A stretch of 63,455 nucleotides of DNA, counting the filler, from Bipalium vagum (taxonomy: Eukaryota), in NCBI GenBank assembly GCA_037834085.1. It is 3 parts of 3 records of this genome, joined end to end, with 100 filler letters (N's around TTAATTAATTAA, not from the genome) between each part and the next. Parts side by side here need not be neighbours in the genome. Positions count along the whole stretch, not along the records: positions 47,186 to 63,455 come from JBBMKC010119519.1; 2 more parts are not named here. One strand, given 5' to 3'. The notes beneath the pieces were generated by a model that was not told where the DNA came from, searched no databases, and saw nothing but the letters and a program-made list of their open reading frames with translations. Within the stretch, counting starts at the first letter, position 1, and each line of letters begins with the position of its first letter. Shown in pieces: positions 8,728 to 63,378 of this stretch. The translations under genes were made by a program, and so were the position numbers.

Positions 8728-16062
<7,335 letters not shown>

Positions 16063-20993: not shown

Positions 20994-21121
20994 NNNNNNN
21001 NNNNNNNNNNNNNNNNNNNNNNNNNNNNNNNNNNNNNNNNNNNNNNNNNNNNNNNNNNNNNNNNNNNNNNNNNNNNNNNNNNNNNNNNNNNNNNNNNNNN
21101 NNNNNNNNNNNNNNNNNNNNN
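20994..21121. other. Assembly gap (128 N)
   Basis: Run of N. Confidence 0.99.
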
Positions 21122-21647: not shown

Positions 21648-21911
21648 TTAAAATGCTCTTGACAATCTACGAAAGAAATTCATGAATAAGTTTCCTGGAG
21701 TGGATCTTTTATGTTTTATGGAATACTTGGTTTTTGAATCCTTTGCCTTGTTTAATTTTTTCTTGTGTCGACGAATTTTCGTGATAATTTGAACTAATAA
21801 ATTATCAACCATATGGTTTAAGACTGTAGAAACCTCGAAAAACTCTGCATCATAAATACTGGCGAGTCGTTTACCTTCTGTAATGTAATGAAAAAAAAAT
21901 CAAAAAAATCC

Positions 21912-21975
<64 letters not shown>

Positions 21976-23775: not shown

Positions 23776-23824
<49 letters not shown>

Positions 23825-28265: not shown

Positions 28266-28268
28266 GCA

Positions 28269-28867
28269 GTGCATGATGTGAGAAATTGCTATGGGAAGGA
28301 AGAAACTGCCTCACACGCCTTATGTAGCTGCATCTACATAATGCCTATGGTACGAAAAAGGCACAATGATGTACTCGATATCTTAGTTGATTTGTTGTCC
28401 ACATTTAAAAAGGAATGGGAAATACACGATGAAAAGAAAGGAATTTTTTCAGGAAAAAACTTAATTCCTGATATACAGCTAGTGAATAAGAGACTTAAAA
28501 GATACCTAATTATAGATGTCAAAGTCCCCTTTGAATCAAAGATTTCTATCAAGGGCAATGACGAAGCAAACCAGCAAAAATATCAGACTTTATTGGACGA
28601 AGCTCAATCCGAGCTCGGAGGGACATGGTACTACGATATCAGAACATTTATAATCGGAGCCGGGGTATCGTGGATCCCATCAAACTACCAAACATTTGGA
28701 GCATTTGGATTTATAATAACAGAAATTAACTCAATTATGGAAAAATGTGCAGCCAGGATGATCATTAATACCCATAATATCTGGAAAAAATTCATAGCCA
28801 GAGCAGAGACAAACATTTAAAAACGTCCCCGTGTCAATGACAACCATATCTTTGATTTGAAAAAAAT
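28269..28867 (+). mobile_element. 5'-truncated R2-superfamily (NeSL/Utopia-like) non-LTR retrotransposon: zinc knuckle plus restriction-like endonuclease
   Basis: ORF 28269-28820: CYGKEETASHALCSC (CCHC remnant), RHNDVL, PDI...IIDVKVPFE (PD-D motif), KYQTL, IIGAGVSW (GALGSW-like); short 3' region ending in an A-run near 28860-28867. Confidence 0.85.
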
Positions 28868-30304: not shown

Positions 30305-30404
30305 NNNNNNNNNNNNNNNNNNNNNNNNNNNNNNNNNNNNNNNNNNNNTTAATTAATTAANNNNNNNNNNNNNNNNNNNNNNNNNNNNNNNNNNNNNNNN
30401 NNNN
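30305..30404. other. Assembly gap with artificial six-frame stop linker (44 N + TTAATTAATTAA + 44 N)
   Basis: The same 100-nt construct occurs twice in the window. Confidence 0.95.
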
Positions 30405-33642: not shown

Positions 33643-35149
33643 AGTAATAATAACTTTGAACAAATAAATTACTGGATTATAAATAGCATCGTTGAAATTA
33701 TAATTTATCTTTAATTTAAGTTAAAAATCTTAATCAATATAAAAGAATTTTCAATGAATTTCACTTTATTAAGCCTATATATTTGAAGTTTTCTAAATAT
33801 TTAGCAAAGCGCAGTGTCTCACGTATAGAAGAAATAAAAAATTTGAGCAAAGATATTAAAATTATAGTAATTAGATGAAAGAAATTTACAAATAACCAAT
33901 TCACAAACTTTGTTTATACCTGAACAAAAAGAATAAAGCTAAAAACATTGAAATAAGTTAAAATTTGATTACTATATATGCATATATATTAAACATCTTC
34001 TTCACAATTTCTGAATTTCAAAATAATTAAAAACAAGAAGTAAAAAAAAATAATTGAATAACAAAAAATCTTTTAAGAAAAAAAATATAAATAACTTAAT
34101 CTTAATAAAGTACATTTTTCATATCTTTATATATCATCTTTTATATATCTATAATTTTTTATAAAATACTTTGAAATAACTGGAATAACTTACTTCATTT
34201 TCAATATTAATTCATAAAAATAAAATGTCGATTTCATCTCAAATTTTTCAAATAAGTAAATAAATTTCATTCGCGTAAACAAATTACATAACAATAACAA
34301 AATTACAATAATTTTACAATAATAAAAATTTTAAATTTATTATATTCGAAAACAATAGAGACTATAAGATTAACCATTGAAATTAAAAAATTTTAAGAAC
34401 TTGTTCTTAATAAATTACCAGCTTCATGTGCTTTAATTAAAAAATTTAATTTATATAAGTATGTATAAAGATTTTACTATTATCTTATTACTTATCTTAT
34501 TTTGTGAATATAGGGTTTTACAGCGATTTTCAACATTTTTCAATCATTTTCAAACAAATGCAACATTTTAAAATTAATTTCAACATTTGTTTATAAAAAG
34601 AAAATATAATACTTTTCAAAATATATTTATAATACTGAGTTCCTATTAATCATTTATAATTTCATTGTTCATGGATCTGTGAACATTTCGAAACTTTTTC
34701 TCCAATATCCTTCGTAATTTTCTTTAGTAATTAAACTTGCTGCTTTAGATATCTGAATTTCAGATATATTCAGAAAATAACACAAAAACACATATATATA
34801 AAAACTTAAAACACACTAAAACATTATAATGTTTTTCAGATCACCACATTGTCATTTATTGTTTTTGGTATAAATGGTGGTATCACATTTTCTCGTCTAG
34901 AAACAAAGAGATCAAGCTCTACCAGAGAGTTTCATGGCTTTAATTGTGTGGTAACGATCCACTTGGGTTGGTGTGGGAATTTCAGCTACTCTTACAGTAA
35001 CGGAATTGGTGCAGATAAGCACGTGAAAATTTTCTTTTAGATAGGGAACGATGTCCTTCAAATAGATTACTCCGGGGTTTTATATTAAATACAGCACCCA
35101 TTTTGTTTTACTGATAAATTGGCATTGATTGGGTATATCGGTGATTTCA

Positions 35150-35940
35150 AATCTTACAATGTTTGGACAGAAGAGATCTTCATGTTTCTCCATTGATTTG
35201 AATCCAAAAATTTATTCAGTCGATCAATTGATATTTTTCTGGTTGATGGTAGGTACATGAGGTAGAACGGAGTGTATCCCGTTCCCAAATGTACTGCATT
35301 TCTATCGCCGAATAAGCACGAGGCAATGTGTACATCCCAATCGTTTTGCTGTTGATTAATATAAAAGGATAACATGCTGGCTAATGTGTAATTGAATCTT
35401 TCACTAAGCCATCAGTTTGAGGGTGATAAGGTGTGGTATTTAATTTTAATATACCAAAATAGTTATTTATTGCCAATTTTTATTAATTTATATATTGCCA
35501 ATATTTTTGTATTGCCATTTTTTTATTGCAATTTTTAGTGGCACTCATGAATTCTCGTCCTCGATCTGTGAGTAGCTTTCTTGAAACTCCATATCGAAAA
35601 ACGAATTGTTCTACAAAAATTTTTTAGATTGTTTCGGTTTTTTGATTTTGGATAGGAAATGCTTTAGGCCATTTTGTTAAATAATTGCTCATTACTAGAA
35701 TGTGAACGTTACCTGAGGTTGTTTGAAGTAATGGACCAAAGATGTCCATAGCGGTCATTTCCATGGGAGCTGGAGGTACTGGCATAGGTTTTAATGGAGG
35801 TTTCATTTTTTGAAGTGTTTCTTCTGGTTTGGCATATCTTACAAGTAGTGCACCATTTTTTTTCTAAGAGATTCTTGATTTTGTTTTTCTATGTGATAAA
35901 TGGCCTCCCAATGTACCATCGTGATATTGTAACAATACTG
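35150..35940 (-). mobile_element. Ty3/Gypsy integrase relic
   Basis: KPPLKPMPVPPAPMEMTAMDIFGPL, NYLTKWPKAFPI, FRYGVSRKLLTDRGREF, TTPYHPQTDG..ERFNYTLASML, DWD...TGYTPFYLMY; stops and frameshifts. Confidence 0.93.
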
Positions 35941-37641: not shown

Positions 37642-37972
37642 ATGACTTCAAATATAAGTCCCGCGTGTGTAATTCATTTAATATTCAATCATTGCAAGCA
37701 GCCGAATTCTGATTTAGTTACTGCAGAAAGTGTTATTGAATATATAAAAACAAATCTAAATTATAATGTGAATTCTGTTTCCTTTGTTAATTTAAAATTC
37801 ATTTGGTAATTTAGAATGAAGAAGCAAGTCGGTTGCATTTTAATGAACTATTTCAATCTTTGAAAATCGCAGGTAAAGCTCAAAATGATTTGCTGAGTGC
37901 AAATGATTTTGAGAAAGTTTTCAAAACTTGGATTTTATCAGTTGATAATGAAAATGATCAGTCACCAAATGA
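37642..37972 (+). CDS. First two coding exons of a gene with an N-terminal paired EF-hand-like domain resembling KASH5/CCDC155 and LRMP (EF-hand_9 type)
   Basis: Exon 37642-37767, 47-nt GT-AG intron, exon 37815-37972 give MTSNISPACVIHLIFNHCKQPNSDLVTAESVIEYIKTNLNYNNEEASRLHFNELFQSLKIAGKAQNDLLSANDFEKVFKTWILSVDNENDQSPN. The F-x-x-C...V-x-x-x-x-V-I-x-Y...RL...L-x-x-SL...F-x-x-V-x-x-x-WI pattern follows the KASH5 N-terminus as I recall it. Homology judged by eye only. Confidence 0.6.
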
Positions 37973-39007
37973 GTATATTTATCTTATCTACATCTTATAT
38001 ATGTACATCTTATCTACATGAAAACTTAATTTCATTAAAATATATTTGTATCGTAATTAGTATTAAATTGTTTTTAAAATTATTGTTTAAAAATTATTTC
38101 AATTGAGATATATATTTCGTATGTAGTTTATAAAATATTTCATTTTTTAGGACTTTAAGTTAAAGACTGGTATTTTATTGAAGTTTTATCAGAGTTATAT
38201 TATTTATTCATATGTTGACATTGGATTAGATATAATTCGCGTACTTGAATGCTCACAAACAATCTTTCATCAATAAAAATGATTGACATTTATTGATCCA
38301 ACTATTTAACAAATAATAAAATGGTTCCATAAATAACTCTTCGAATTTTCAATCCAGTAGTTCAGAAATTATTAAATAATAAATATACATTATTAAAAAA
38401 TTGATTCCTCAAAATACTATTCACACTAATTTATGTATTATTTAAAGAATTAAAATTTCAAATTTTTTAATTTTTATGATATTATTATTCTCTGCAAAAA
38501 TAAATTAATGATAATAATTTAATAAATTACAAACGATTTATAAGTATTAACAAAGTATTGATAACTAGTTTAGTTAAAGATGATAAATGAAACCAACTTT
38601 GGTAAAATGACTTCATTAAAATGGATTTTTCTGATTAAATGTATATATACAAATTATGATTAATCTTGTTGAATTAAATACTTAATTTTAATTATATTAG
38701 TTTTTTGTATTTTTTGTATTAATATTCAAATAAGAGAAATAGTATCTGATTAAAATAATAATGAAAATTTAAGATATAATAATAAATTACTTTATTTTTA
38801 TTCATTATTTTCGTTAAATAATGTTCTTAATTATTATATTAATTGATCTAAGGATATTTTTGACCATGCTTAGTTTTAAACCATATTCTTAACCCCCTTA
38901 GGGTTTCATCAATGTTTTATAACCCATCACAACTAATCATGTCCATTTTCCATCCCATGATTTTTTCCAATTAATTAAAGGGCAATTAGAAAAACAACAA
39001 CAATTTA

Positions 39008-41098: not shown

Positions 41099-41710
41099 CA
41101 ACAAACGAAACTGATTTGAGACATTGTTTTTGTTCAAGGTTAAACAAATAATAATAATGATACTGGTTTCCAAGTTTTGATATTGTTAGCTCATTAACTT
41201 ATAGTTCGTTATGCCCAACTTTATGTTAGTGATTGCTCAATTTCTTTTCAACTTTTCATACAAATTCAAAAAGAATCATAATTATTGAAGTCATCACACT
41301 GATAAAAGAAGTGGAAGGGATATTCAGCACAGCCAGTAATCCTGATCTGTAATATTCATTTTTAAGAAAATCAAACTAATATAAATTTAAGTTTAAAAAT
41401 TTTTGAAAATTAAACTAATATTTTATTAATTTTTGTTGTTGTTTATCTTAAAAATGACAATAAATTGTTTATTCTTTCCAAGTCATTTACACCTTTTTTA
41501 CTTATCAAAAGATATAAATATGAACATTTTTATTTCAAGTACAATCAAATTTTGTTCCTTTTTAATATATTTTGAAAATTAAGAATTTGTTTTATTTTAG
41601 ATCTAGGTCTTTCAATCAGACTTTAATGTTCAACAGTACTCAAAATCGACTCAGTCGCAGTTTGACAAATTTAAAACAGAAGATCGATAGTGACCATAGA
41701 AAAATTTTGG
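41099..41710 (+). CDS. Tentative chain of small internal exons, possibly the continuation of the EF-hand-like gene
   Basis: Phase-compatible GT-AG exons 41099-41138, 41190-41224, 41291-41348, 41601-41710 read TNETDLRHCFCSSSLTYSSLCPTLFITLIKEVEGIFSTASNPDLSRSFNQTLMFNSTQNRLSRSLTNLKQKIDSDHRKIL with 51- and 66-nt introns. Links upstream and downstream are unresolved. Confidence 0.45.
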
Positions 41711-43599
41711 GTAAAAAATAATTCACAATAGTTTTTTCCGATAAAATAATTTTATATATAAAAGATAATTATTTATAAAATATTTATGAAAATAATAATT
41801 AGTTTTTTAACAATGATTGTAATAATAATAATAACAATAAATTATAATAATAAATAATAATAATTATGAGGAGGCTAATCAGACCTGCGGAATTTTTTAA
41901 TTGCTTATTTTAATTATTTTAAAATATTAAAGGTACGAATAAAATTTAAAAAATAAACTTATTTTTAAAATTTTGCACTGTTCCTTCATCAAGCACCTGG
42001 TTAAGTTTTGAGACAGTTTTATTTGTGCTTGTGTTATTTTTCCATTAGTAATAAATTATTGCTCTAATTTGTGATTTGTCCAGCGAAATTTTGGAGCACC
42101 TATTCCAGAGAATAATGGTTAATAACATTAATTATACAGTATACTTGAAACTCACATGTTTAAACAGCAAACTAAAACAAAGATAATTTAAATCAGTAGA
42201 TAAATGAGAATCCCAGGGGCTAACAAATTTTAACAACTAAAAAAACGAAAAAGTTCGTTACTTGATAATAAATAAATAAACGAGAATAACGATAATGATA
42301 AAATCAAATATTGAGAAAATAATAGTACCTAAAGAAGTGTATAATTTATATTTAAGAAATTTATTGTAATTTTCACAATACTTTCTTTCAATATTAAGTC
42401 AATAAAACATTGAAAGTTGTTTTAATAGAAAATCACTAAATAAAATAAATGTGTAAATAGTGTAGCCAAAGATTTTCTATTAGATCTTTGGAAGATTTAA
42501 TTAATTTATTACACTTGAATGATCATTATTTCAAAGTATAAAGTATTGTTTAATCTATATAATTTATAAAAAGTAATAAAACTAATTAAGCACAAAATAT
42601 TAAAAAAAGAAACGTCAATCATACTTGATAACTGTTACCTTTTTATTACTATTACATATCCAGTTGTTCTGGTTTCACAACTTTAAGCTTCTCAGCCTTA
42701 TTATTGTTCACCTATGTATAGAATTATTTTGCTTGATGCTTTTCAAATTATAAATTAATATTTGTAATGTTAATTATATTTTGCAGCATATAATTTATAT
42801 ACCATCTTTTTTCAAACAAGGCGCATATTATCTTCTGTAAGTTAAACCGGAAAATGTTATTATTAGGAATACTATTCCAATCTAAAATATTATTTGTTAT
42901 TTAATAATTAAAAAGGTGCACAAATGAAGAAATGAATTATTATTCCAATTTTAATTACATTTAATCTCTAATATTAATTATATAGTTGATGACTGATTTA
43001 GTTTTTCGCTTTCTTTATGAGATCAGTTATTTTCTAAAATGACTATAATTTAAATTTTTTAAATATAACCTTTTATGTACATACTTTATTGTAGTTAAAT
43101 ATTTATTGATCTGTTAATATTAAAGTTTGAAATCATATCAATCAAAGACATTTTCAATAACAATTCGAATATATATATAATCTTGTGAACATCATAAATT
43201 TATTTTTTAAATAGACGCATTTCAATTATTTTGAACTAATTTTTTCCAAATATTTATTATCAAGAAACATGTTTCGAACTATTATCAGTTCATCATCATC
43301 ATTAATATTTTAAACAACACACTTTATTTATCTAAACGTCGGTCTAATTTTTAATTTAAATATTTTGTAAAATTCTGAGTGGTGGAAATTATTATTTTTA
43401 ATTTTTAAAAAATTCTTTTCTCTCTTTAAAAAAAATTATATTCATTTTTAAAAAAAAATCTAAAAATTAATTAATCTGAGAAAACATTGACCACCAATTG
43501 GCTTTTACTTTCTCCAGTTTGAATATTGATCTCCGGTTGCCACTCTTTTATTAATAACGATTCGCATATCGATGTACTCTCTCAAAAGTGGTTTTCGCC

Positions 43600-44530
43600 A
43601 AGGCTTCCAAAAATAATTATTTACCGCTTCATAAGGAAAACCGCTTTCCACCAAGAAAATTTTTAAACTTTGGATACAAGTAAAAGATAGAGGGAGCCAA
43701 ATCGGTATGGTAGATGTTGAAGAAGTTCGTACTTTAACTCATTGATTTTTGCCATTTTTATTAATGCCGTGTGTGGAAGTACATTATTTTGATGAAAAAT
43801 AATTTTCTTTTTCTGCAAACCGGGTCTTTATTCATTAATGGTAGTATCCAAATTATTCAACAGTTTTAGGTAATACTCTCCATTGATTGTTTCACCTTTT
43901 TGAGAATATCGATCATAAGAATTCATTTTAGAATCCCAAAATATTGATGCCATAACCTTACCAATAGAGTGAACTCCCATCGCTTTTTTGGAGTTGAACA
44001 TTTCCGATGTTTCCACTGCATAGATTTGGTTTTGTTTTCTGGAGTGAAGTAATGAACCCATATCTCATCTGTGGTAACAAATCCTCGCACAAAATCAGTT
44101 TTATTCTTTTGAAAACGTGGCAAACTTGAGAAAGTTTCATTCTTACTTGTTTTTGTTCAACTATGAGCAAACAGGGCTCTCATCTTGCCATTAATTTTTT
44201 AATCTCTAATTCATTATTCAAAATAAAATGCATCAATTCAGTTGATATGTCAATTCTGTTAAATATATCTGATACCTTCGCTCAACGATCTTGGAGAACC
44301 GATTCATCTAAATTCATTCATTTAAATCAAATTATTACTAAAATTAATCTGAGTCATTTATATAGTGAAATTCCAGTGCATGTATATTTAATATAGTATT
44401 TTCAGATCTTTATTAATCTTTGTACAAATTGTACATTCAGTGTAATGTGATATTTTCAATTAAGATATTGATCTTATTATATTCACGTAATTTGGGTAAG
44501 CACTTTCTATCAGTCGGAAATTTAAATATG
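43600..44530 (-). mobile_element. Decayed mariner transposon
   Basis: FVTTDEIWVHYFTPE, SIGKVMASIFWDSK, KGETINGEYY, PDLAPSIFYLYPKFKNFLGGKRF. Confidence 0.92.
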
Positions 44531-46055: not shown

Positions 46056-47000
46056 CAGGGTTTTCCAAAAGAAGCTTTACTACTTTTAACATATTAAATA
46101 CTAAGTAGTTTTTGTTTAAATAAATTAATATTTAACATTATTCTAGCTAGACATCTGAAAATTAAATATGGATCGTTATAATATGCAACAATGGGCAGAA
46201 AATGTCAAAATATGTTATCAAAGCGGTAGTTCAATTTCAGTAACCGTTAAAAAATTAAATGCGAAATTTTGGAAAAACAAATGTCCATCAAAACCAACAT
46301 TTTACAGTCTGGTTAAGGCTTTTGAAACATTTGGCTCGGTAACAGATAGACCAAAATTTGGACGACCTCGATCTGCGCGTATACCTGAAAATATTGCAAA
46401 TACACGAGAAAGCATTGAAGACAATAAATGCACCTCAATCAGTCATAGGAATTAAACCTCTCAAAATCTAATTTGTCACGGATAATGCATGAAGATTTGC
46501 ATATGAAAGCTTAAAGAATCAGACGATCAAAGTCGCCTGAATTATTTTAATTGGTTGATAGAAAGATCAATTGTGGATCCTCATTTTTGGAAAAAAATCA
46601 TTATGACTTATGAAAGTCATTTTCACTTGAGTGAAGATGTTTTTAATAAACAAAATTGTCGAATTTGTGCAACAAAGTAACTCTATGTTTTGAAGGAAGA
46701 CGCATTACATTCGCCAAAAGTTACTGTATGGTGTGGGATATGGGCAAGAGTTGTAATTGGTCCATACTTTTTCGAAAATGCTGCAGGTAAAACAGTTACA
46801 GTAAGGGAGAGAGATATTGACACATGATAGAAACATTCCTACAATCAACCAAAAACTATTACACAACTCAAAGAAAACATTTCGGAACAAATCGCTATGA
46901 TCTCAATTGACTTATACCAAAAAGTTATGCTAAATTCCATAAAATAGCCCAAACTTGTAAGGCTGCCAGGGGCGGTCATTTTAATGATATATTTAAAATA
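46056..47000 (+). mobile_element. rosa/DD41D-like (Tc1/mariner superfamily) decayed transposon
   Basis: TA|CAGGGTTTTCCAAAA left TIR; MDRYNMQQW...FETFGSVTDRPKFGRPRSARIPENI; ESHFHL...NKQNCRI; LHSPKVTVWCGIWARVVIGPYFFEN. Confidence 0.85.
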
Positions 47001-47085
47001 TATTTTTTTGTAATATCTGTGTTTAAATAAAGGTATAAATAAAATTATTTGGCTTTTTAATTTTTATGTACGGAGAAATAGCGAC

Positions 47086-47185
47086 NNNNNNNNNNNNNNN
47101 NNNNNNNNNNNNNNNNNNNNNNNNNNNNNTTAATTAATTAANNNNNNNNNNNNNNNNNNNNNNNNNNNNNNNNNNNNNNNNNNNN
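47086..47185. other. Assembly gap with artificial six-frame stop linker (44 N + TTAATTAATTAA + 44 N)
   Basis: Same construct as 30305-30404. Confidence 0.95.
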
Positions 47186-47920
47186 GACCATTCATCTGAA
47201 GGATATCATCAATATTCAGAAGAACCAGACCATTCATCGGAAGAATATCATCAATCTTCAGAGGACCCAGACCATTCATCGGAAGGATATCATCAATCTT
47301 CAGAAGACCCGGACCATTCATCTGAAGGATATCATCAATCTTCAGAGGAGCCAGATCATTCATCGGAAGGATATCATCAATCTTCAGAGGAGCCAGACCA
47401 TTCATCGGTAGGATATCATCAATCTTCAGAAGACCCGGACCATTCATCTGAAGGATATCATCAATATTCAGAAGAACCAGACCATTCATCGGAAGAATAT
47501 CATCAATCTTCAGAGGACCCAGACCATTCATCTGAAGGATATCATCAATCTTCAGAGGACCCAGACCATTCATCTGAAGGATATCATCAATATTCAGAAG
47601 AACCAGACCATTCATCGGAAGAATATCATCAATCTTCAGAGGACCCAGACCATTCATCGGAAGGATATCATCAATCTTCAGAAGACCCGGACCATTCATC
47701 TGAAGGATATCATCAATCTTCAGAGGACCCAGACCATTCATCGGTAGGATATCATCAATCTTCAGAAGACCCGGACCATTCATCTGAAGGATATCATCAA
47801 TATTCAGAAGAACCAGACCATTCATCGGAAGAATATCATCTATCTTCAGAGGACACAGACCATTCATCGGAAGGATATAATCAATCTTCCGCAGAGCCAG
47901 ACCATTCATCTGAAGGATAT
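47186..47920. repeat. 42-bp minisatellite, about 17.5 units, with higher-order unit structure
   Basis: Unit GACCATTCATC(T/G)GAAGGATATCATCAATCTTCAGA(G/A)GACCC(A/G) repeated head to tail from 47186. Confidence 0.98.
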
Positions 47921-47923
47921 TAA
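47186..47923 (+). CDS. Partial (5' end in gap) 245-aa tandem-repeat coding exon, consensus (DHSSEGYHQSSEDP)n, ending in TAA
   Basis: Frame is open from the gap edge at 47186 to TAA 47921-47923. Several recurrent unit variants are synonymous in this frame (TCT/TCG, GAA/GAG, CCA/CCG, GAC/GAT) but change residues in the antisense ORF. Confidence 0.6.
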   Translation, partial: DHSSEGYHQYSEEPDHSSEEYHQSSEDPDHSSEGYHQSSEDPDHSSEGYHQSSEEPDHSSEGYHQSSEEPDHSSVGYHQSSEDPDHSSEGYHQYSEEPDHSSEEYHQSSEDPDHSSEGYHQSSEDPDHSSEGYHQYSEEPDHSSEEYHQSSEDPDHSSEGYHQSSEDPDHSSEGYHQSSEDPDHSSVGYHQSSEDPDHSSEGYHQYSEEPDHSSEEYHLSSEDTDHSSEGYNQSSAEPDHSSEGY

Positions 47924-49534
47924 GAAAATACGTCAAATAGTTGCAAAATAAAATTTTATCTTATTTCTCTTTTACTTAATTGTATAAGTAAATTTTTTTT
48001 AACTAAATTGGGAAATTTTCTTTGTTTGTTAGTTTTTGCACTATTTCTGATATTTTCTAAGAATCTTTCGTATTGTTTAAAAAGTATGAAAATATCATTT
48101 TTCAAGATTAAAGAATTCAAAAAAATTAACTATTGAAATCGAACATTTCATGATACAGCCTAATATTTATGTTGACTTAATCTGAAATCAATATAATTTA
48201 TTGTTTATAATTCTAAATTTTTACTAATAATATTTTTATTTCTTAAAGCATAAAAATTATTCTTTTTTTCTAAATTTCTAAGAAAAATAAAGATGTAAAA
48301 ATATTAAAAATTTACATTATTTCTTTTTTTTTGGTTTAAATTTTATCATAAACTTTTCAATTTTTAAATTACTAAGTTTTTAAAAACTAAGTAATCTCAA
48401 ATTTTATATTAAAATAATTAATTTTGTTGGGATTTGTCCAGAATGTGGAGATATGTGTGAATAAGAAATATTTCCTACATCATCCAGAAAAAAAAGAAAG
48501 ACAATTCCAAAAAGCAACTAATGGGAAAAAAGATAGGCAGATAGTGAAATTAATTTTGTTTGCTCTTAAGGGTTTTAAATTGATGCGTCTCAGCTTGACT
48601 CATATTAACGCTCTCGGTTTTCTATTGAGTTAATGGAAAAGGTTAGAAGAGAAGGAAATCCGTGAGATTTTTCTGTGATTTCTGTTAAAGATTTCACTAA
48701 TAAAAATTGGTATTAGGTTAATGCTTTTCACACATTTTAGCTAAATATAAAGACTTTTAAAGATATTTCTAAATGTTTTGTTATCTATTAAATGGAATTT
48801 AGACTTACTATTTTTACTTTTACATGAAGATGTGATTGTGTATAAAGACATTTTAAAATACGACTTGGGAAAAAGTAAAATTTGGAAGATAAGACATTTA
48901 TTTTTTGAAAAATATTTCACTTTTCTTGTAAGATTCATAGATTAAGACAGTCTCCTTTGACCACCTTGTTATTTTTATACATATTTGGAAATACTCACTT
49001 TTTCAGATTTACTTAATTTTAATTTTAAAATAAAAACCGGATCATTTATTTTATTCTCTCAATTTCGATTTAACAACCTTAATTCCCAATTATTTTTTTC
49101 CTAAATCTTTCTTTGCTTCTTTACAATTTATTTTAAAGGTTTTTTGGTTTTTTAAACTACTGTAAAAGCTCTTCTAGCTATTCTTTCCACTGTTTTCTAA
49201 CAATACCTGATAATATGCGTTTCCCTAAGTCTATGGTACTGAAATAATCAAATGAAATATTCTGATAATTGTTCTTTCTCTTTCTAATTTCTTTTTTATT
49301 TTATTCATGGTTGTTTTGAATAAAAAATTTTTACTCATTAATAGTAAATGTATACATTTCCAATATTTATTTTCTCAATTTTTCTTGTGTAATTATTGCC
49401 AAATTTATTAAGAAAAACAAGAGATTTTCTTAGTTAAATGATGAATCCAATCAACAATTAAATTATAATAACAAATTATTATAATAAATTATTAAGAACA
49501 AAGATAATAACAAATAGATTTTAGAATTAATCGT

Positions 49535-50130
49535 CTGTTGGAGAAAATAGCCTTCTAAAAGTAGAAATTGGCCGACAACTGCAATATTTAGTTCAGAAAT
49601 TCGCCGAAGAAAGAATAAACTTTAAAAATTATTTTTGCCAGGATTTCTAAACTTTTGCCAGGGAATTCACAAACGGGATTCACAAAATTTTGCGTTTGAA
49701 GATTCTCATTAAAGATTGATCGTAAGCATTTTTCTTTTACAAATACAAAAGATTTTTCAATGGATCCCGTTGAGTTAATGAACCCCTAGGTGACCGTACA
49801 AAGTCTAGAGGAAAACCTTGGGACCCCTTGACCCCTCAAATATGAAAAATGTTATTCTATTTTTTTCTTTAAGTATTTTTTTTTATTTTAAGCATTAATT
49901 ATAATAATAGCATTATATTATGAATTTGATTTTATTTTTTAGTACCTTTTAACATTGATTAAAATTATACTTAAGTATTTGATTAGCATTATAAATTGGG
50001 ATTACTTCGATTCATTGATGTTGATTGTAAGTAAAGTGTATTGTGTTATTTTGATTCACGAACACGGGAATAACTAAATAACCAGTCAGTGTTTACAAGC
50101 ACAACATTATTTTCAAGTTTAATTGTAACA
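49535..50130 (+). repeat. Dispersed LTR-like repeat, copy 2
   Basis: AAATAGCCTTCTAAAAGTAGAAATT at about 49545 and motif 49758-49830; possible end TGTAACA at about 50130. Boundaries approximate. Confidence 0.55.
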
Positions 50131-50981
50131 AAATAAAATTAGTTCTGATAGTTTTATATTAAGAAATGTATAATATAAAAAATCTTTTCTTTGTTTAGTT
50201 GTTTTCTTTTTTCTTAGTTTAAAAATGTTTCATAAACATTTCTTTGTTTGTGTGCAAAAAGTGCAACACAGACTGCATTAAAAGTTCAGATATTAAATGT
50301 CAACCAAGTTGACTTGATTATAACATTTAAACAAACCTGTGTCCTTTTTCTGGGGAAATATAATTGGTTATAATAAATTTAAATATAAATCAAGATTCTG
50401 AAAAAAGATTGTGGGATGAAATATAAGGAATTAGAACAATTATCTTATTGCACTTTGGACATTATCTTGTTTATATCATCATCCGGTTAATTGCCTTTTT
50501 CTTCCCTTTTCTGTTTTTTATCTGATCATTACACTGATCTCTTGTTATTCACCAATTTCAAAACATTAATAAAACACGCATTTTGATTTATTTCATCTTT
50601 GGTTTTAATTCAAAATACTATTTCCAAAGGAACATTAATTCTTTGAGTCGAAAAACATCAAATATTACATATACACTTGGATATTTACTTATTTTTGCTT
50701 ATTATTTTTTATTTATTATGAGTAGCATATCTCAAATGCTCTTGTGAATTTAATTATGAATCTGTTTTTATTTAATTTGAGAAAAATAATGTTCATTTAT
50801 TTATGGTATGCTACAAACGTAAATTGTTTTAAGATTCATCCAAACAATAATTACTGTAAGATTAATAAACAAATTAATTTTAATTTATCATATTTTGTTT
50901 AAAGAATTAAATTAAATTATATTAAAGGTCAAATTTTTTTTAAATAAGTTCACTATTTTATTAAAATAAGTTAAAATATCA

Positions 50982-53900
50982 ATGCCAGCTATATCTCATA
51001 AACATCATTTAGATAATTTGAGAGTATGTGTAAATAATTTATTATATAATAATATAAATATTAAGTACCAAAGTGGTTTTGGAAATGAATTTGCCAGTGA
51101 GCACTCAAAATATCCAAATTCGCTGCCAAAATCTCAAGTTAATATTCAAAACACAATTAATTTATTACCTGAGAATTTTTTTAGAACAATCCCCAAAAGT
51201 GTCCATATGGGTTATATGCTGAACAAATTTCAGGTACGGCCTTCACTTCTCCGAGACATGAAAATCAAAGAAGGTTTTAACTATGAATAATTAAATATAT
51301 AATATATATTATATTATAACATTTAACATTTAGATAAAATAATTTTCTGATATTTAGCTTTTGTTTTATCACATTTTAAGTTTAAATTATTTCATATAAA
51401 ACTATTTAAATATATAAAAATGAATCATTATATTTTCTTCAAAGTTGGCTGTATCGAATTCTTCCGTCTGTTGTTCATCGGCCTTTCAAAAATTACAAAA
51501 ACGCAATACTGTTTGTTAATGACTTTCAATCTTCAAAACCAAATCCCAATCAGATAAGATGGGAACCTTTCAAAACTTTCGGAGGCCTTGATAATCAAAA
51601 TGTTGATTTTGTTGATGGAATTCAAACCATTTCAGGAGCAGGAGATTCCCGAACTCGGAATGGAGTAATGATATATGTATACACTTTTTCCAAAAATATG
51701 GTTGATAAAGCATTTTTCAATGCTGATGGAGACTTTTTAATAGTTCCACAAGAAGTTAATAGCACTTAATTATGTTTATTTTACTAATTGATAAATTAGG
51801 GAGCTCTATCAATAGTTACAGAATTTGGAAAATTTATTGTGTCACCTGGAGAAATCTTTGTTATTCAACAAGGAATCAAGTTTGCAGTCAACCTATTAGA
51901 TTCGCTTTCTGCCAATGGATACATATTAGAGGTAATGGGGAACCATTTTGTTTTACCGTGTCTTGGTCCAATAGGAGCAAATGGTCTGGCCAATCCAAGA
52001 GATTTTCTGACATGTGAGGCTTGGTTTGACGAAGATGCTGTAATGATTTATTTTATGAAATATCTTTTCAGTCAATTTGCTTATTCTTAGGCTCGTGAGA
52101 CAAAATCATTTACAATAATCACAAAATTCCACGGTGAACTATTTGCTGCCGAACAAGATCATACTTGTTTCGATGTTGTCTCATGGCATGGAAATTATGC
52201 TCCTTATAAGTATGATTTAGGAAATTTCGTGGTTATTAACTCAGTATCTTTCGATCATATAGTAAGTAACTTGTCAATTTACATTACAAAATCTACTTTG
52301 TCTTACTCAGGATCCATCAGTATTTACAGTCTTAACCTGTCCTTCTTTGAAACCAGGTACAGCAATTGCTGACTTTGTAAGTTTTCCACCAAGATGGTCA
52401 GTACAAGAAAATACCTTTAGACCCCCATATTATCACAGTTAGATTTTTATGAATGCAAATTCCTCAGGATTATACTGTTATTATTATAATATAATATTAC
52501 TATTATTTTTTATATTATTATTATAATAACTTAGTATATTTCCCTTTTAATTTTTAATTTTATGATCATAATTAAATTAAATCAATAAATAAATAATAAA
52601 GAATTGAAAATCTCAGATTGTAATAATTACATTTCGTGAAAAAATTCATTAAAAAAATCATAAAATTTCATTAAAAAATCGAAATCCAGGAGTGACAGTG
52701 TGGTTCCGATCTTTTTACTTCGACACTACAGTAGCGGGTGCCAATTACCTAAACCTCTTGCAAAAATTTATTATGCCAATAATTAAAGAAGACTTTGGAA
52801 ACAAGGCTTTATTTTCAGCAAAATAGTACACTTGCACACTACTATCGTGGAGTGATGGAATACCTTGACAATAAAATATCATATACATATGTAGGTAGTT
52901 TGAAAGACAAGATTCAAAGGAATTTCTTCCTCGATCACAAGATCTAAGGCTATTGGATATTTTCCGGGATAATATGAAGGACAAAGTTTATAGCACAACA
53001 CAAGACTATTGAGGAACTAAAGAATGTACCAAAATTCAAAAGGAAATGATTATGGAAGTTTACCTCTCAAACGCTACCGATATCAACAATTCTTAAAAAC
53101 AGAGAGGGTTTTTATTTTTTATATATGCGTTAACAAATTATTAGGTCATTCAAAAAGTAATGCCCGTTTGCAAATATTTTGAAATAGTTATTTATTACAA
53201 AAAAATATTACTTAAATAAAAACACCGGTTATTAGTACATGAAATCAAATTTATTTTTGTTTAAATATATTTCTTTTTTAAAAAATAGCATCTGAAATAA
53301 GCAGTAAAATCAAACAATGTGTAATAGAATTTTTATGTAAATCTGTCGAAACCAATTTCGTTGTGAGATAAATTGAAAATAAGTCGGGGGATGTAGCTCA
53401 GCGGTCAGAGCAGTCTATGCGCATGTGAAGGTCCCGGATTCGAATCTCGGTATCTCCGATTAACTTTCAACTAACAGTCGTCAAAATTCACAAGAAGCTT
53501 TCCAATGTCTACAAAACGGAGACAATGTTGTCAGATGTAGTGTCAGACGATGAATATATTATTTTAAAAATGATGAATCTAATGTTTAAGACAAACAGAA
53601 GTGGAAGACTGGATTTCTTATTGTACATGCTCTTCATGATATTTTCACATATTTATATGTTTGATAGCTTAATACAATTACAAAATAAATAATTTAATTG
53701 ACTGAACAATTTAAGTTATGGAAACATTTTTATAACAAAAGGTAATATTTTTAAATCCTATTTTATTTCATGTATTAAATTAAATGAATATTATTTTGTT
53801 TAGGAAATTGCATGTCTGAATTCATGGGACTTATTTATGGCAAATATGAAGCTAAGGAAAAAGGATTTCAGCCAGGTGGTGCAAGTCTTCATAGTATGAT

Positions 53901-54102
53901 GATTCCTCATGGACCAGATGTCGATTGTTTTGAGGCTTGTTCAAATAGCGTTCTAAAACCAGAACGAATAAGTGAAGGAGCACTGGCATTCATGTTTGAA
54001 ACATCTTTGAGCTTGTCAATAAGTAAATGGGCTCAAGAACACAACATAGATAGCGATTACTATAAATGCTGGCAAGGATTAAAGAAACATTTTCTTAATT
54101 AG
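50982..54102 (+). CDS. HGD: Homogentisate 1,2-dioxygenase, 8 exons
   Basis: Exons 50982-51023, 51066-51137, 51185-51273, 51445-51754, 51800-52039, 52091-52261, 52311-52437, 53804-54102. Motifs [92 protein letters not shown] (Fe ligands His, Glu), PHGPD (third ligand His). Confidence 0.98.
52730..53110 (+). mobile_element. Tc1/mariner-superfamily (rosa/Tc3-like) catalytic-domain remnant in HGD intron 7
   Basis: [19 protein letters not shown] and [12 protein letters not shown]...MKDKVY (WPPRSPDL..KxxVY-like). Confidence 0.7.
53387..53458 (+). tRNA. Degenerate tRNA-Ala (CGC-like) / tRNA pseudogene inside HGD intron 7
   Basis: GGGGATGTAGCTCAGCGGTCAGAGC...GGTCCCGGATTCGAATCTCGGTATCTCC: acceptor stem with G3:U70 (Ala identity), intact D stem GCTC/GAGC, A and B boxes. 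The anticodon stem GTCTA/GTGAA barely pairs and the T stem has a mismatch. Confidence 0.7.
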
Positions 54103-55870: not shown

Positions 55871-56037
55871 TTTATATTGTGAATAATTTTAATTAATTTT
55901 AATATTTATTTTAAAATATTTTTTATTGGCATGAATTCTGACATTTAATGGCACAATATATTAATTTATTAAGAATGAAAAATTTGTTTAAGTATTATTG
56001 TTTTTTAAATAGGCATTCAAAATATATTGTTCAAACT

Positions 56038-56880
56038 ATGACTGATTTTGTTGATATCGCAGCTAACATGACGACCAACACCAGAGAACTCTTAGCCGAA
56101 TCACTCAGACCAGAAATATTTCGAAGATCAGATGATGTTGATAAGTTTCTGCACAAGTCTAAAGTTTATTTCGACATGTTGGGATTACAAAAATGTTAGA
56201 GAATAAGCCGTCGTTGGATTGATGGAAAAAAACGTCGAGAGAAGTATGAATTAAGAAATCCACAGACGGACTATGAAGAACGAATGAGAAAGGCATTCGG
56301 GAAAGTAAAATCACAGGTGAAGGACCTTAAAGAGGCCTTTAGTTATAAGCGTGGAGAAGAAGATGTGGACGTGTATGTAAAAATAATCTCGGAATTTGCT
56401 AACAGTTTAGTGGAGCGCACGTGGTACAAAGAAACGCTGAAAAGTGAATTATTGCCACATTGTTGGAATGACAAAGAGATGTGGAAACACTTACAAAGGA
56501 AGGAAGAGAAGGATTCAGAAGAAATTGTAAATAAAATGAAGAGATTTGATAAAAAAATGGTGCCAGAAGAAGTAAATATGGTATCTTATAGAGATGCGTT
56601 AAGAAAAAAAGTCAAAAGCTGAAAACCAAGCTATGCTTATCACAAGACGTATAATAATAGCGTCTAAAAATTGGAACCAGATATTAGCCAGAAAAACCCA
56701 AGTCAGATGTAGTATGTTACAGTTTTAAGAAAATAGGGAACATCAAAAAAGATTGTCCAAAACGAAATAGAAGAAAATGGTTCGCATGTGGTTCGGAAGA
56801 CCAAATTGTAACAGAGTGAAGTGCATTCGTAGTCATGGAAAGGGCCATCGTGAAAAAGACAGCTATACCAGTGAATCTAG
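56038..56880 (+). pseudogene. LTR-retrotransposon gag relic with degenerate CCHC zinc knuckles
   Basis: LRPEIFRRSDDVDKFL capsid-like start, in-frame stops, then CYSFKKIGNIKKDCP, WFACGSEDQI and KCIRSHGKGHREKDSY (decayed CX2CX4HX4C motifs). Confidence 0.7.
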
Positions 56881-57747
56881 AATAAGAGCTATCAGACAAT
56901 TATATACTTATGAGAGAAATAAAACAACAGAATATAGAAGAAGTAATGGATTTCAGAGAAATGTGAAGGTAAAATTCATGAAAGGAGATATAAATTTGAA
57001 GATAGATGAGGAAAAGCAATTGTTTGGCAAATCAAACAAATATAAAACAGGGTTTTACACCAACATTCAGAATCAAACACTTGGAAAAAATACTAGAAAA
57101 AATCACAAATTTGTGTATATTTTGAACTAATTGAACCACAGTTAGGTCGTATTTGTTTTTCATTAAAATTATTTCTATGAAATATATCTTTTATGTTTCA
57201 TTGTGATATCAAATACATTTTTGTCAATTGTATTGCATTCCAGAAAAAACATTAATTTGAAAATATAAACTAAATCTATGAACCAACTTTATCTTATTTT
57301 GAGTAGATTTAATGAAGTTATGCCTCAAATTTTTAAGAAAATGTTACATTTTTAGACTTTCTAAAATTTTTATTTATAAATTTATTTATAAAATTTTCAT
57401 ATTTTTTCTGGTTGAAAACGGATATTGGAATTTTTATAAAATCTGATTGTTTATTTCTAATTTGATTTCCATATAAGTGATTTCTAATAATATTAATTTA
57501 AAAATCAGTTTAACATTAAAATTAAAAATATTGAATTGCAATAAACACAACGAGTATTACATTTTATTAATTAATAAAGAAATTTTAAAAATAAATTTAT
57601 AAATAATTTTAGTAGTGAATGACTGAAATCAATTATTATAAAACTTACATTATTATTGTTGTTTAAATTAACACTATAAACTCTGATTATAATAGCAAAA
57701 TTTCAAATAGTTTCTAAGGCAAACATATTTAATGTTATAATTTAATA

Positions 57748-60700
57748 ATGACAAATGAAATTGAACCCCACATATTAGAAAAATATGAGATCAAAAAGCG
57801 ATTAGGAAAAGGAGTAAGTTTATCATAGACCCGATTAAGATTTTATAAAACAACACCGTTTTAAATTGACAGGCTTATGGAATTGTTTGGAAGGTAATTG
57901 ATAAAAAAACACAAGAAGTGGTTGCATTAAAGAAGATTTTTGACGCATTCAGAAATAAGACCGATGCTCAGGTAATGATAAAAAGTTACCGCCCCACTTA
58001 AATGTTTTCACTAATTTAGAGAACATTTCGAGAAATTGCCTTTCTGAAACAGTTCCATGGACATCCTAACATCATCAAATTGTATAATGTCCTAAAAGCA
58101 GAAAACGATAAAGATATTTATTTGACTTTCGAATTTATGGGTAATTCTTCAGATTTTAATATTTTTATCACCTTATTTCAATTATGAATTTTCTGGGAAA
58201 TCTAATATTTAATTGATTTCTCTTAATTATTCTGTTTTCAAAAATTTATTTTATCCACATTGCTTATAAAATTATTTTATTTAAGAGTAAAGTTGCGCCA
58301 TTAAACCCAATTGTTAAAAATATAATTAAAATACCTTTAAACATGAATTTTTTTAAAGACCTTCTCAAAAGTTGAAAATCCGTCTTACAACTGAGACACC
58401 AATTAAAATAACCCTAGACTTATTAAACAATCCAAAATATGAATTTTCGTAAGAAAATCTTTTTCATATATATACTTATGTAGGTTTATCCCTTAATATA
58501 TGGTCGCCCAAATTTGAAATAAGACCACAATGTTTATCAAATCTTTACTGTACCAAAAACAGAGCTGATAATATTTAATTTTGGTAAACAATTTTTTTAT
58601 TTTCTTTGATCTTTTGGAAAATCAAGTGTCATTTAATATATAATTATATACAATTGTCTTATTTCAGTATTGTGTATTTTAATTTTTAAAAAAGTTCTCC
58701 TAATAAGAGATATTCGAGAAAAATTGTTCCCGTCTTTTTCGTTAATTGATTATTATTTATTGTAAAGTGTAAAATGAGATAAGACGGCCTTCACTCTTTA
58801 CCTGTGTAACATAGATGAAGCGAGCGAGAAAGTAGTGGAGCTGAAATCATTTTATGTTAATGAATTTATCATTGATAAATGATCATGGTTTGTACCGTGC
58901 TTCCTTAACATGTTAAATTATTCCAAAATAATTCGGAATAAATTATTTTCCATTGTTATTCAGCATTCAGAGTTATTAAAAGTATCTAACATGTTTTTAT
59001 TTAATGATAAAACTGGTTTTATTTTTTGATTTAATTGAAAATGGATTTTGGGGAAATTTAAAAGAATTATAAATCGTGTATTATTATTTAAGATCACTAG
59101 CAACAGTTAATAATTAATCTTGATAATGATTGATATAATGATCTGCTGGAGAGTCAGGTGAATCCATTCAAAATCGTTTTAATATGAATCGCTCGAAAAA
59201 TTATGCAGTTCCTGCAACATAATATCTTATCTAATTTCAAGAAGGTCTTTTTATTCCAATGACTGTTAATGTAATGGTCATTTCGTGACTTCCTTTTGAT
59301 TGACTATCGACTAACGTTACTGTTCATATTAAATGATTTTTGTTATGATTAAAAGGAATATGTAACCTTTCGATAAGGTGACTTTTTAAGAAATTTATCT
59401 CATTCATATTTAATTAAATATTCTTTAAGAATTCTGTCTTATCATTATTATTATTATTATTTTATTTTTTTTATTATTATTTTTATTATTATTTAAGGTT
59501 TGTCTTAAAGAATATTTTAAAAAGTTTTTATTTCTTAGTTCATTTCATTTTGATTAATGTAATTTCGTAAAAATCGACTTTAAAAATATTTATGAATATG
59601 TGAAACAATCATTGACTTTTTACTAAATTTGTGAAAGATAGAGAATTTGATTTACTTTTTGATTTCTTCAAATTGATTAAGATTGAAAAATCAAATTTTT
59701 CAACATTTCCGAAATTTTAACTTAAAATGAAATTGAAACTTAACGATGAGTTCGAGGTTTTACCTAATGAAACTATATTTATTTTTTTAATTTCAGAAAC
59801 GGATTTACATAACGTAATTAAACGTGGTAATATTCTGAAAGATGTACACAAACAATACATCATGTATCAACTATTGAAAGCAACAAAATATTTGCATTCT
59901 GCCAATGTTATTCATCGGGATCAGAAGGTTTTTATTGATTCCAATTATTCAATTATATTTTTTGAACTATTCCTTTATGCAGCCTTCAAATGTGTTATTG
60001 GATAGTGATTGTTTTGTAAAACTGTGCGACTTTGGGCTGGCCCGTTCGTTATCTGAACGGGACTCGGTAAATCCTAATCAAAATTTACCCCCACTAACGG
60101 AGTACGTTGCCACTCGCTGGTATCGAGCTCCAGAAATTCTCATGGCTTCCCACAGATATACGAAAGGTGTAGACATGTGGAGTCTGGGCTGTATTCTTGG
60201 TGAAATGATTTTGGGCAAAGCTTTGTTTCCCGGTAAATCAACAATGAATCAGATCGATTTAATTATGACATATATACCGAAACCCGATAAAGAAGGTTGG
60301 GAATTTTTTATTAATATTGGTTTTATCATATTATGACATTATATATTCTGTATCTCTTTTTGAACATCAGAAGGCCTAATATTTCTAAACAATAATTGAA
60401 ATAATTTTATCATTGTCTATGAAATGAGTTATCTTCATTCTAAGAAGCTCGTTTTTGATGATGAATTTTTTAATTGATGTCAAATACTGATTGATTTTTC
60501 ATTTAAAGTGGCTTAGTATATTTTATAAAAAATTTACATCATATTTGACGGGTATAGAAGATGATCCAGTAAAAACTCAGCTAACGATGACCCTGTTTTG
60601 TAATGTGATATATTTGAAGATATCTTTAGATTATATATAACATGTTAAATTCTAATTAAATAATTATCATCAATCAATAATTTTCTCAAAATATCTCTTA

Positions 60701-62790
60701 ATGAAATCAATATTGAAAAAAGACATGATTTATTATCAATATTCAGACATCGAAACAATGCTGAAGGTTTATCGAGCAACAATGGTTACAAAAGTCAATA
60801 CAAGGTTAAAATTGCTCTTTTCATCAATAATTTCCAGATATTTTTTATTGTTTATTAAACTTTTTCTTTTTCAGACCTCGGAGGACACTTGAAGAGCTGA
60901 TTCCCAATGCTGATCCTAGTGCCATGGATTTGATAATTAAACTGTTACAATTTAATCCCGATAAACGTTGCACGATTGAAGAAGCACTGTCTCATCAATA
61001 CGTCAAAAGGTTAACGAAATTGTTTACACATTTGTTATGGAATTTATTTGAAAATACAGATTTCATAATACTGCTGAGGAGATATCAATGGGACATGATA
61101 TCATTCCACCTGTTGACGATGATATTCAATTATCTGTTGAAGAATACCGTTCTAAATTGTACAAAGTAAATTTTGTGGATTTTTGATATATAGAAACATA
61201 TCATTGAGTTCTGGATAATCTTTTCTTTACTACTTTGTATAATGACAAAAAACTTTAATAATATCTACCCATGCAAAACTATATTTTGTTAATGAAAAAT
61301 ATTATTTTAACCAGGAATTTCAAAATATAGAAAAACTAAGCTTAAAGATTAAATCTTAATCATAATAATTTTATGGAATTTATTATCCGATTGTTTATTA
61401 ATAAATATTCCTTTTAAGTGATTTTTCAAATCAATTTGGTGAAAAATATTTGTTCTATGCTTTTTTCAAATATTTTTTATGTAACATTTTTCGAAGTAAA
61501 GTCATGTAACTTTATTTCTAATTTATTAAGATCATTTCATATTTTATGTTAAAATATTATAATATTGATTTTATTGATACTGAACATTTTAAAAAAATTT
61601 TATTGAATAAATTAATCAATCATTGATTTATATTGAATTCTGCTACATTATTAATACTCCTAGTTGCATCTTCATTTCTATGACTGATTTAAGCATTGAT
61701 CTAAAATCTCGTCTTGACATCATCCTGGTTGCTGAATTTATTCACCATAATCAACGAAAATAAAAATTATTTATTTTGTTAAAAATTTACAATGGCCCCA
61801 TTAAAATTTTTCCTGACTCTTTCAAAGGTTTAACATTAAAATGATCGTTTAATTGTCTTGCAAATTAATATTGTCAACATTTTTTTTGTATAATAATTTT
61901 AAATAAGAAAAATTGAGTAAAAAATATCGGTACCACCTGATATCGTTAAATCAAACTTACCTTTTCACAGAATTATAATATTAAATTATTGAATATTTCC
62001 ATTTTGTGCCAAAAAAATAAGTTACCGGGGTTGCATCGATAATTCACGTAACTTAATTGATAGTCAATTTTTAATTAAATTCTATGAGAACATTATACAT
62101 TATATTTTATTCGGAATTAAATCTTTGAATTTTTGTTACTTTAGTAATGCAAAATTTCTAGTTGTGGATGGTCGAGTAATTTGTGTGTATATTAGTTACT
62201 GCAAAATTATTGGTACTGTCGATATTATTAAGATTCATAATTCATATTTAGTCTTATTGCTTAATTTACGATATATTGTTTGATAAGTTTGCTATGTGAT
62301 ATCCCTTAAAATTTAAAAATAATGTTTTATTAAAAATTAATAATGAAATTACTTTATTATTTTTTAAAACTTTATAAACTCATTTAAAAAATTCTTTTTA
62401 TTTGATGTTTTTAATTTTTAAATTTTTTTTTTAAATGTTACGGTTTACTAAAGAACCGTTTCGATTTCTCTAGTTTTAGAAAAATCTAATATTATTATAA
62501 TTAATTTTGTGCAATAAATTGACAGAAATTTAGCATGATTTCATTTATTTCAGTTCATTATGCAAAACAAAGCCCAAAAGAAAGCTAGAAAAAGAGCGTC
62601 TGCCAAAAATCAAGCCGCTGATCCTGACATCATGGAATGTACTTCGTCAACATATATACAATCGAGACCGAGCTCTAATTCCGTTCAAAACTCATCAGCG
62701 ACCGGCAACAGAAAGGTTGGAGACCATCAGACAAATCATGATTTTATGATGGAACCTGAAATGCACAAAGCAAACAAAGATTACGGCCAG
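57748..62790 (+). CDS. MAPK15: Mitogen-activated protein kinase 15 (ERK7/ERK8), at least 9 exons, probably continuing beyond the window
   Basis: Exons 57748-57813, 57873-57971, 58020-58140, 59797-59927, 59983-60295, 60747-60804, 60875-61009, 61060-61165, 62554-62790. [34 protein letters not shown], the MAPK15-typical [19 protein letters not shown] activation loop ([14 protein letters not shown]), [12 protein letters not shown]. Confidence 0.96.
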
Positions 62791-63378
62791 GTTGGAATTT
62801 TTGATATGGAATTGTAAAATAGATAAAATAAAGTCAAACACAAAATCGATTAATATTAGAGTTCGGAAGCTGTCATATATGTTCTAAAAGTAATGCTTAT
62901 TTTATTTGACTGAATGTTACTATTGAGATATTCTGACCACACAATTAGATCTTAAATTGTCAGATACTGACTTTTTCCTTTTAATCTTTAATCTTTATGA
63001 AGTAAGGTCTCAAAAGATTTTGTGTTTAGAGAATTTTAAAAATATTCTTCCGTCCCGGCTTGCTAAATCTATTTAGTTTTATTATCGCTTTTCACAATGC
63101 TGCAAACATATTTTTCTCTTATCTTCGATTGAATAATTAAGATCTACTTCGTCTTTTTTTTAGATAGATATATGCTTTATTCCGAAAAGTTTACCTCCTA
63201 ATGTGAATGTGAGATTCAATGAAGAAAGGTTTATGATTCTATTCCCATCAATCTTTAATCTTTATTAAACCATGTAATATATTGACCGTAAGGTTAGGTC
63301 TACAAGTCAAAAAAGTTCTTTAAATTTTAAAATGTATACAAAGAATATATCAAGAAATATCTTTTAAGAAATCAATAA

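Follow-up and report, generated by a model that had tools for sequence, protein, structure and literature searches.

A 42-bp tandem array at positions 47186–47920 (+ strand) of a 63,455-nucleotide stretch of Bipalium vagum DNA, referred to below as the window, is best explained as the 3′ stretch of coding sequence in a terminal + strand exon, which would encode the C-terminal tail of a disordered, acidic repeat protein specific to its lineage. We hold this explanation with somewhat better than even confidence. The product is probably a new example of orphan low-complexity repeat proteins, a common class. When the evidence is combined, support for coding on the + strand is moderate and not decisive. 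The preliminary description of this DNA had already interpreted the array as a + strand terminal exon, and that interpretation stands with modest backing from the codon-position pattern between half-units (P = 0.021), the count of silent variants (P = 0.082), and exon-like GC content and codon use.

Tandem-repeat analysis of the window defines a 42-bp period at 47186–47923 with 17.5 copies, 89% match and 0% indels. The + frame, a (DHSSEGYHQSSEDP)n-type repeat predicted to be disordered from AlphaFold models, is stop-free for 245 codons and ends at an in-frame TAA in unit 18 (47921–47923), confirming the period, the length of the open frame and the stop as originally described. On the minus strand one frame likewise stays open through the whole array and into the adjoining gap, and the other four of the six frames contain stops. 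The stop is followed after 23 nt by a weak candidate polyadenylation signal (AATAAA, 47947–47952, + strand) and then by T-rich sequence. Each of these is a weak sign of a gene end, as stops make up 7.4% of the triplets in the window and AATAAA lies within about 60 nt of 21% of all its stop triplets.

The order of the units, ABCDEF-ABG-ABCGF-AHI, is indicative of block duplications, and the degeneracy reported earlier for the last units is borne out by the location of five of the six singleton variants in units 16 and 17. The 42-bp unit is itself a duplicated 21-mer (22/42 identities at lag 21, P = 0.007), and this duplication is old. A 7-codon motif, x-[HQ]-S-S-E-[GED]-x, was doubled to 14 codons, with the two halves diverging mainly at third positions, and the array then grew by single-unit and block duplications.

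The explanation that competes most directly with a coding exon is a non-coding minisatellite, in which slippage and unequal exchange of whole units keep frames open without selection. This is a serious but less likely possibility. Such a minisatellite could possibly have a degenerate triplet repeat (CAT/TCA, GAA) as its origin, or a dead piece of coding sequence or of a transposon, and the block-duplication structure with its degenerate edge, as well as the transposon debris to the left of the array, are consistent with it. The open + frame proves little, because at least one frame remains open in 72% and at least two in 32% of 20,000 column shuffles of the 42-column unit alignment, as expected for a minisatellite, and because the minus frame is open too. 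Evidence against a minisatellite comes from the composition and distribution of the repeat. The GC content of the array (0.42) is far above that of 30 other tandem arrays in the window (0.02–0.33; chosen among 51 repeat rows after removal of triplet repeats and of rows that overlap), and it is reached by 18 of 1190 other 735-nt segments, the top six of which are exons of the AGAP-like gene described below. Furthermore, the unit pattern matches at 17 places in the 63-kb window, each of them inside the array, with no second copy elsewhere in the window, and the array ends in an in-frame stop.

Comparison of the two half-units of the repeat modestly favors the + frame. In this frame the half-units differ at six of seven third codon positions, and at two of seven first and two of seven second positions, a third-position excess that counts against a minisatellite (hypergeometric P = 0.021, or about 0.04 once both open frames are taken into account) and that is also seen when averaged over all 17 units. 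The sole other frame that shares this wobble column has stops in every unit. Residue identity between the half-units in the + frame (3/7) is not significant (P = 0.13–0.33).

Variation among units has also been examined in both open frames, a count that the preliminary description had proposed as a check. Of the 14 distinct variant alleles, the + frame has five that are silent (P = 0.082) and the minus frame four (P = 0.73), and the severity of substitutions, measured as BLOSUM loss, is mild in the + frame (P = 0.064) and not in the minus frame (P = 0.86). The other nine alleles change residues in the + frame, as do four of the five singletons at the degenerate edge. The statement that several recurrent variants are silent on the + strand was partly upheld. 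Three of the eight recurrent alleles are silent in the + frame (two in the open minus frame), the other five are residue-changing (E>V, G>E, S>Y, and D>E twice), and the GAC/GAT difference included among them is a singleton in unit 5. The recurrent variants do not constitute independent evidence, because they were spread by block duplications.

Codon use was compared with a model of 1574 codons from three host genes, among them the gene for homogentisate 1,2-dioxygenase (HGD), which served as the codon and splice training set. GC content by codon position (1/2/3) is 0.63/0.40/0.22 in the array vs 0.48/0.38/0.24 in HGD. The codon adaptation index (CAI) is 0.773 for the + frame and 0.681 for the minus frame, with values of 0.69–0.77 for the three host genes. 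A CAI as high as that of the + frame occurs in 48 of 4000 column shuffles, and in two of 4000 a single open frame equals the array in CAI and silent count together, which counts against a minisatellite. The CAI signal fades to a weak one under fairer nulls, as it is matched by 1100 of 5000 dinucleotide shuffles, and by 35 of 259 GC-matched non-exonic 42-mers (a result favorable to a minisatellite), compared with 15 of 46 exonic blocks. Triplet periodicity in the array is pronounced (P = 0.0013) and is matched by 47 of 5000 dinucleotide shuffles, a number that rises to 385 of 5000 when lags 18–21 are left out. Because it is weakened in this way and exceeds that of real exons, being reached by one of 111 exonic blocks, the periodicity was not counted in favor of coding. 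Periodicity above that of real exons is instead what short internal repeats, and not ordinary coding sequence, would give in a minisatellite.

Searches for homologues of the array product were uniformly negative, as would also be expected for a minisatellite. A representative protein library of 1.84 billion sequences returned 130 matches at E ≤ 0.001, with identities of at most 46%. All 130 were scanned for motifs and none contains three or more HSSE motifs; the 33 in which the repeat stretch was inspected are unrelated 7- or 14-residue repeats. In a 90%-clustered protein set, searched with an 84-residue query against proteins of 148–2000 residues, five of 5375 candidates matched and none contains the array unit. 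No match to the array product was found in Pfam at E ≤ 0.01 or among PDB sequences, and a literal search of the literature with five unit motifs found none. The ESM Atlas returned the same generic repeat clusters for both frames (top score 0.84, recognition 870). These missing homologues are weak evidence of novelty, because the host's own HGD is also absent from the set and because repeats assemble poorly.

The product predicted from the + frame is rich in Ser (27%), Glu (18%), His (14%), Asp (11%) and Tyr (9%), contains 5.7% Gly and no Lys, and has a pI of 4.2. It contains 39 S-x-E sites. Among the 17 whole units, nine have exactly two such sites, six have three and two have one, while 16 have two His and all 17 have one or two Tyr, in agreement with the earlier statement that most units carry two S-x-E motifs, two His and one or two Tyr. 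The occurrence of two S-x-E sites per unit is not clearly above the expectation from composition (P = 0.079). The sequence SSEE is present in variant units, and Ser occurs in pairs only. AlphaFold models of the + product lack secondary structure (mean pLDDT 47.7), and no hydrophobic segment is found in the array product before the stop. The array thus shares with lineage-specific low-complexity repeat regions a 14-codon in-frame period, block duplications, a degenerate edge and predicted disorder. It is set apart from those known by its unit, which was found in no database sequence searched; the matches retrieved are other 7- or 14-residue repeats.

These properties suggest how the C-terminal tail of such a repeat protein could work. 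The protein would start in or beyond the gap at 47086–47185, and its repeat part would be an unfolded polyanion with a charge of about −68 at pH 7 before modification. The two S-S-E motifs in each unit are candidate sites for an acid-directed kinase, and the two His, together with the carboxylates, are candidate ligands for metal ions. The most likely mode of action would be that of a spacer or matrix tail that is phosphorylated at many sites, binds metal, and undergoes condensation or cross-linking with Ca, Mg, Zn or Cu. The consensus for the kinase CK2, which acts on intracellular proteins, is S-x-x-E/D, and the S-S-E-D/E of the array fits it. An intracellular acidic tail with predicted CK2-type phosphorylation is one tentative version of the proposal. 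The extracellular version, in which the tail would belong to a secreted phospho-matrix protein of a granule, capsule or mucus, phosphorylated by a Fam20C-type kinase, is analyzed here as slightly less probable still.

A secreted protein of this kind, phosphorylated by Fam20C and cross-linked through His and DOPA in an eggshell, cocoon or glue, was the specific proposal of the preliminary description, and it would be a sub-case of the terminal-exon explanation. We regard it as doubtful. The 39 S-x-E sites and the His and Tyr contents noted above are in its favor, and an excerpt of PMC11714710 gives the Fam20C motif as S-x-E/pS. Phosphoserine glues are known from the sandcastle worm and caddisfly (PMC9999432, in part), and cross-links of DOPA with His or Lys have been proposed in flatworm shells (PMC11727788 and PMC5544531, both in part). 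Against it, the product has no Lys and 5.7% Gly, is strongly acidic, and has no match to a TES domain or any other Pfam family in the array part. A scan for a signal-peptide exon upstream of the array gave chance-level candidates only. The sole signal-peptide candidate, a short ORF at 34461–34514 (+ strand) that opens with ATG and combines a hydrophobic stretch with a splice donor, was rejected as chance-level because the window contains 21 ORFs of this kind.

Comparison with known secreted proteins reveals partial likenesses. Typical trematode vitelline proteins, as described in sections of PMC11727788, contain about 12–15% Tyr and a TES domain. Similar to these proteins, every unit of the array contains Tyr and His, the residues of DOPA–His cross-links, but the array differs in having 9% Tyr, no Lys, a strong acidity and no TES match. 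Planarian capsules are quinone-tanned and require yolk-gland factors that are described as uncharacterised in passages of PMC5544531; array motifs are absent from 12 supplementary files of that paper, a weak result as its tables may hold no sequences. The sandcastle worm protein Pc-3 and caddisfly H-fibroin are, like the predicted array product, Ser-rich polyanions with interspersed Tyr and a potential to bind Ca or Mg once phosphorylated. According to portions of PMC9999432, Pc-3B consists of blocks of 6–12 pSer separated by Tyr and the caddisfly protein contains (pSer-X)4. The array has neither long poly-Ser nor (S-X)4, and its Ser residues are paired and account for 27% of the product. It is likewise unlike the polycationic DOPA glues with high contents of Lys, His, Gly and Tyr, and unlike Pc-3 with its approximately 70% pSer (PMC9999432, in part). 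Short-read assemblies are broken by the large repeat regions of the Macrostomum proteins ap1 and ap2, a likeness to the array, but the excerpted text of PMC8621496 describes Gly/Arg/Lys-rich repeats in ap1 and repeats of 221–255 residues in ap2, and neither feature is present in the array. Overall, the composition predicted for the array does not match that of trematode eggshell proteins or known glue proteins, and the literature on flatworm repeat, glue and shell proteins provided context only and no relative of the array.

The likeness to Fam20C substrates of the casein and osteopontin kind lies in disorder, acidity and dense S-x-E sites, with SSEE present in variants of the array. The array differs from them in its perfect tandem repeat and invertebrate context and in that no homology was found, and for the array product both phosphorylation and secretion are hypothetical. 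The array may also resemble the N-termini of statherin and histatin. A casein- or statherin-like secreted design reached independently in an invertebrate lineage that has been poorly sampled, with two S-S-E, two His and one Tyr per 14 residues in at least 18 repeats, is conceivable at a low level of confidence. Such a protein might serve as a glue triggered by metal or as the matrix of a capsule or granule, its single chain combining phosphate with imidazole chemistry and possibly also with that of catechol.

The consequences depend on which explanation is correct. If the + frame is the coding frame, an ORF caller that prefers the longest frame would put its annotation on the wrong strand, and a repeat protein specific to this lineage would either go unnoticed or be given a mistaken but confident β-solenoid model. 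If the product is also secreted, its simple 14-residue phospho-Ser/His/Tyr unit would be a candidate for a metal-responsive material, either adhesive or shell-forming. Neither a minisatellite nor an intracellular tail would be out of the ordinary. Because animals commonly have orphan proteins rich in repeats, even a positive case would add a new example and no new principle.

Coding by the minus strand was also considered and is improbable. The open minus frame at 47187–47957, a (ILPMNGLGPLKIDD)n-type repeat, runs into the gap; an ATG and a site resembling a splice acceptor lie at 47909. On this explanation an exon starting at 47909, head-to-head with HGD, would encode a 14-residue hydrophobic and acidic repeat predicted to form a β-solenoid. 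In addition to the frame being open over the whole array, the acceptor at 47909 has a score of 7.3, within the range of 22 true acceptors (0.6–13.5), and the codon log-likelihood of the minus frame (0.47 bits per codon) is nearly equal to that of the + frame (0.51). The acceptor score, however, is reached by 160 of 5266 AG sites in the window (1.26 per kb per strand), and no upstream exon above threshold was found on the minus strand in 47960–50980. The minus frame also lacks the excess of silent sites (4/14, P = 0.73), its half-units have one of seven residues in common, and its variants place Pro, Leu and Gln in one column and Gly, Val, Ala and Asp in another. The best AlphaFold model of the minus product is all-strand (pLDDT 78, pTM 0.74), but the five models vary widely (pLDDT 78, 67, 54, 50 and 34) and the solenoid has no PDB match at E ≤ 0.001. 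When given 78 random repeat sequences, AlphaFold2 has been found to return confident β-solenoids for 32 of them (PMC11795689, in part). The predicted solenoid was dropped as evidence on account of this bias, the spread of the models and the missing PDB match.

Returning to a + strand terminal exon, the 5′ context of the array is interrupted at 47086–47185 by what is taken to be an assembly gap, made up of 44 N, a 12-base spacer with stops in six frames and 44 N. It lies directly 5′ of the array, consistent with the earlier remark that the 5′ part is cut off. The same form of spacer is repeated at 30305–30404, and the gap at 20994–21121 is plain N. ORF callers report false starts and ends at the six-frame-stop spacers. 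The gap at 47086–47185 probably hides further units and 5′ context, because the contig ends on both sides of it are repeats. The left contig end is a decayed Tc1/mariner-type transposase region (46159–47085, + strand) with broken frames and a Pfam DUF4817 match on 46159–46452 (E = 1.7e-7); of 327 inverted-repeat pairs, the 25 longest include no right inverted repeat of the mariner before the gap. Exon scans from 21 to 51 kb found no start, acceptor or partner exon tied to the array.

An unannotated-looking gene that starts at 37642 is a separate one or, possibly, the upstream part of the array's own gene. Its first two candidate exons (37642–37974, + strand) are separated by a 47-nt GT-AG intron, and 41601–41710 (+ strand) is a phase-compatible possible third exon. 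The product may resemble the EF-hand N-terminus of KASH5/LRMP-type proteins, which are dynein-adaptor-like. If the array were the last exon of this gene, mariners would lie in its introns and the array would encode an intracellular acidic tail. The gene is on the array's strand, 9.5 kb upstream of it, with two clear exons, a third in compatible phase and no convincing 3′ end before the gap. We consider this joining quite improbable, since the KASH5/LRMP assignment is tentative, and the two exons searched separately gave no Pfam, protein or PDB match. Its missing exons could also all fall within the gap. Moreover, the C-terminus of KASH proteins is formed by a transmembrane segment and a KASH peptide (PMC10071310, in part), and the array has neither. 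Coding on both strands, with a disordered phosphoprotein on the + strand and a β-solenoid on the minus strand, is rated as very improbable because two open frames arise in 32% of the shuffles.

HGD (50982–54102, + strand) has eight exons and encodes 449 residues. Its ATG at 50982 lies 3.06 kb downstream of the array, close to the distance of about 3 kb given originally; for the functional link through tyrosine catabolism that this proximity had brought to mind, nothing was found beyond the distance itself. In a protein search with HGD, 4224 of 8000 candidates matched, and identity to named animals reaches at most 71% over the last exon. In a tree built from 37 of 120 listed matches, HGD groups with a record designated P0001 (79% identical, support 100/100). 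The region 50982–51023 encodes a short His-rich N-terminus that is common to P0001.

The window as a whole is AT-rich (GC about 25%) with AAT repeats, and 10 of 21 measured introns are 42–59 nt long. An AGAP/centaurin-gamma-like gene with at least 13 exons and GC-rich 3′ exons lies at 8728–16063 (+ strand); translation reading indicates GTPase-like, PH, ArfGAP and ankyrin regions, and Pfam gave ArfGap only. Exons of an RGK/Ras-like small GTPase were recognized at 21651–26393 (minus strand) by translation reading, with no Pfam match on single exons. A 194-codon ORF at 28236–28820 (+ strand) resembles the end of a site-specific non-LTR retroelement that carries the endonuclease, and no Pfam match was found for it. 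Other remnants of mobile elements include a Tc1 HTH fragment (23259–23486, minus strand), an integrase-like LTR remnant (34900–35900, minus strand), a mariner remnant with a Pfam Transposase_1 match (43500–44350, minus strand), a gag-like remnant (56000–57100, + strand) and, within the long intron of HGD, a second Tc1/mariner-like remnant (52680–53100, + strand). The same intron contains a tRNA-like sequence (53386–53458, + strand), which is probably a pseudogene or the head of a SINE because ARAGORN finds no tRNA in the window. Finally, a MAPK15/ERK7-like kinase with a TEY motif is located at 57748–61170 and possibly 62539–62800 (+ strand); it matches Pfam Pkinase, and the MAPK15 label comes from translation reading.
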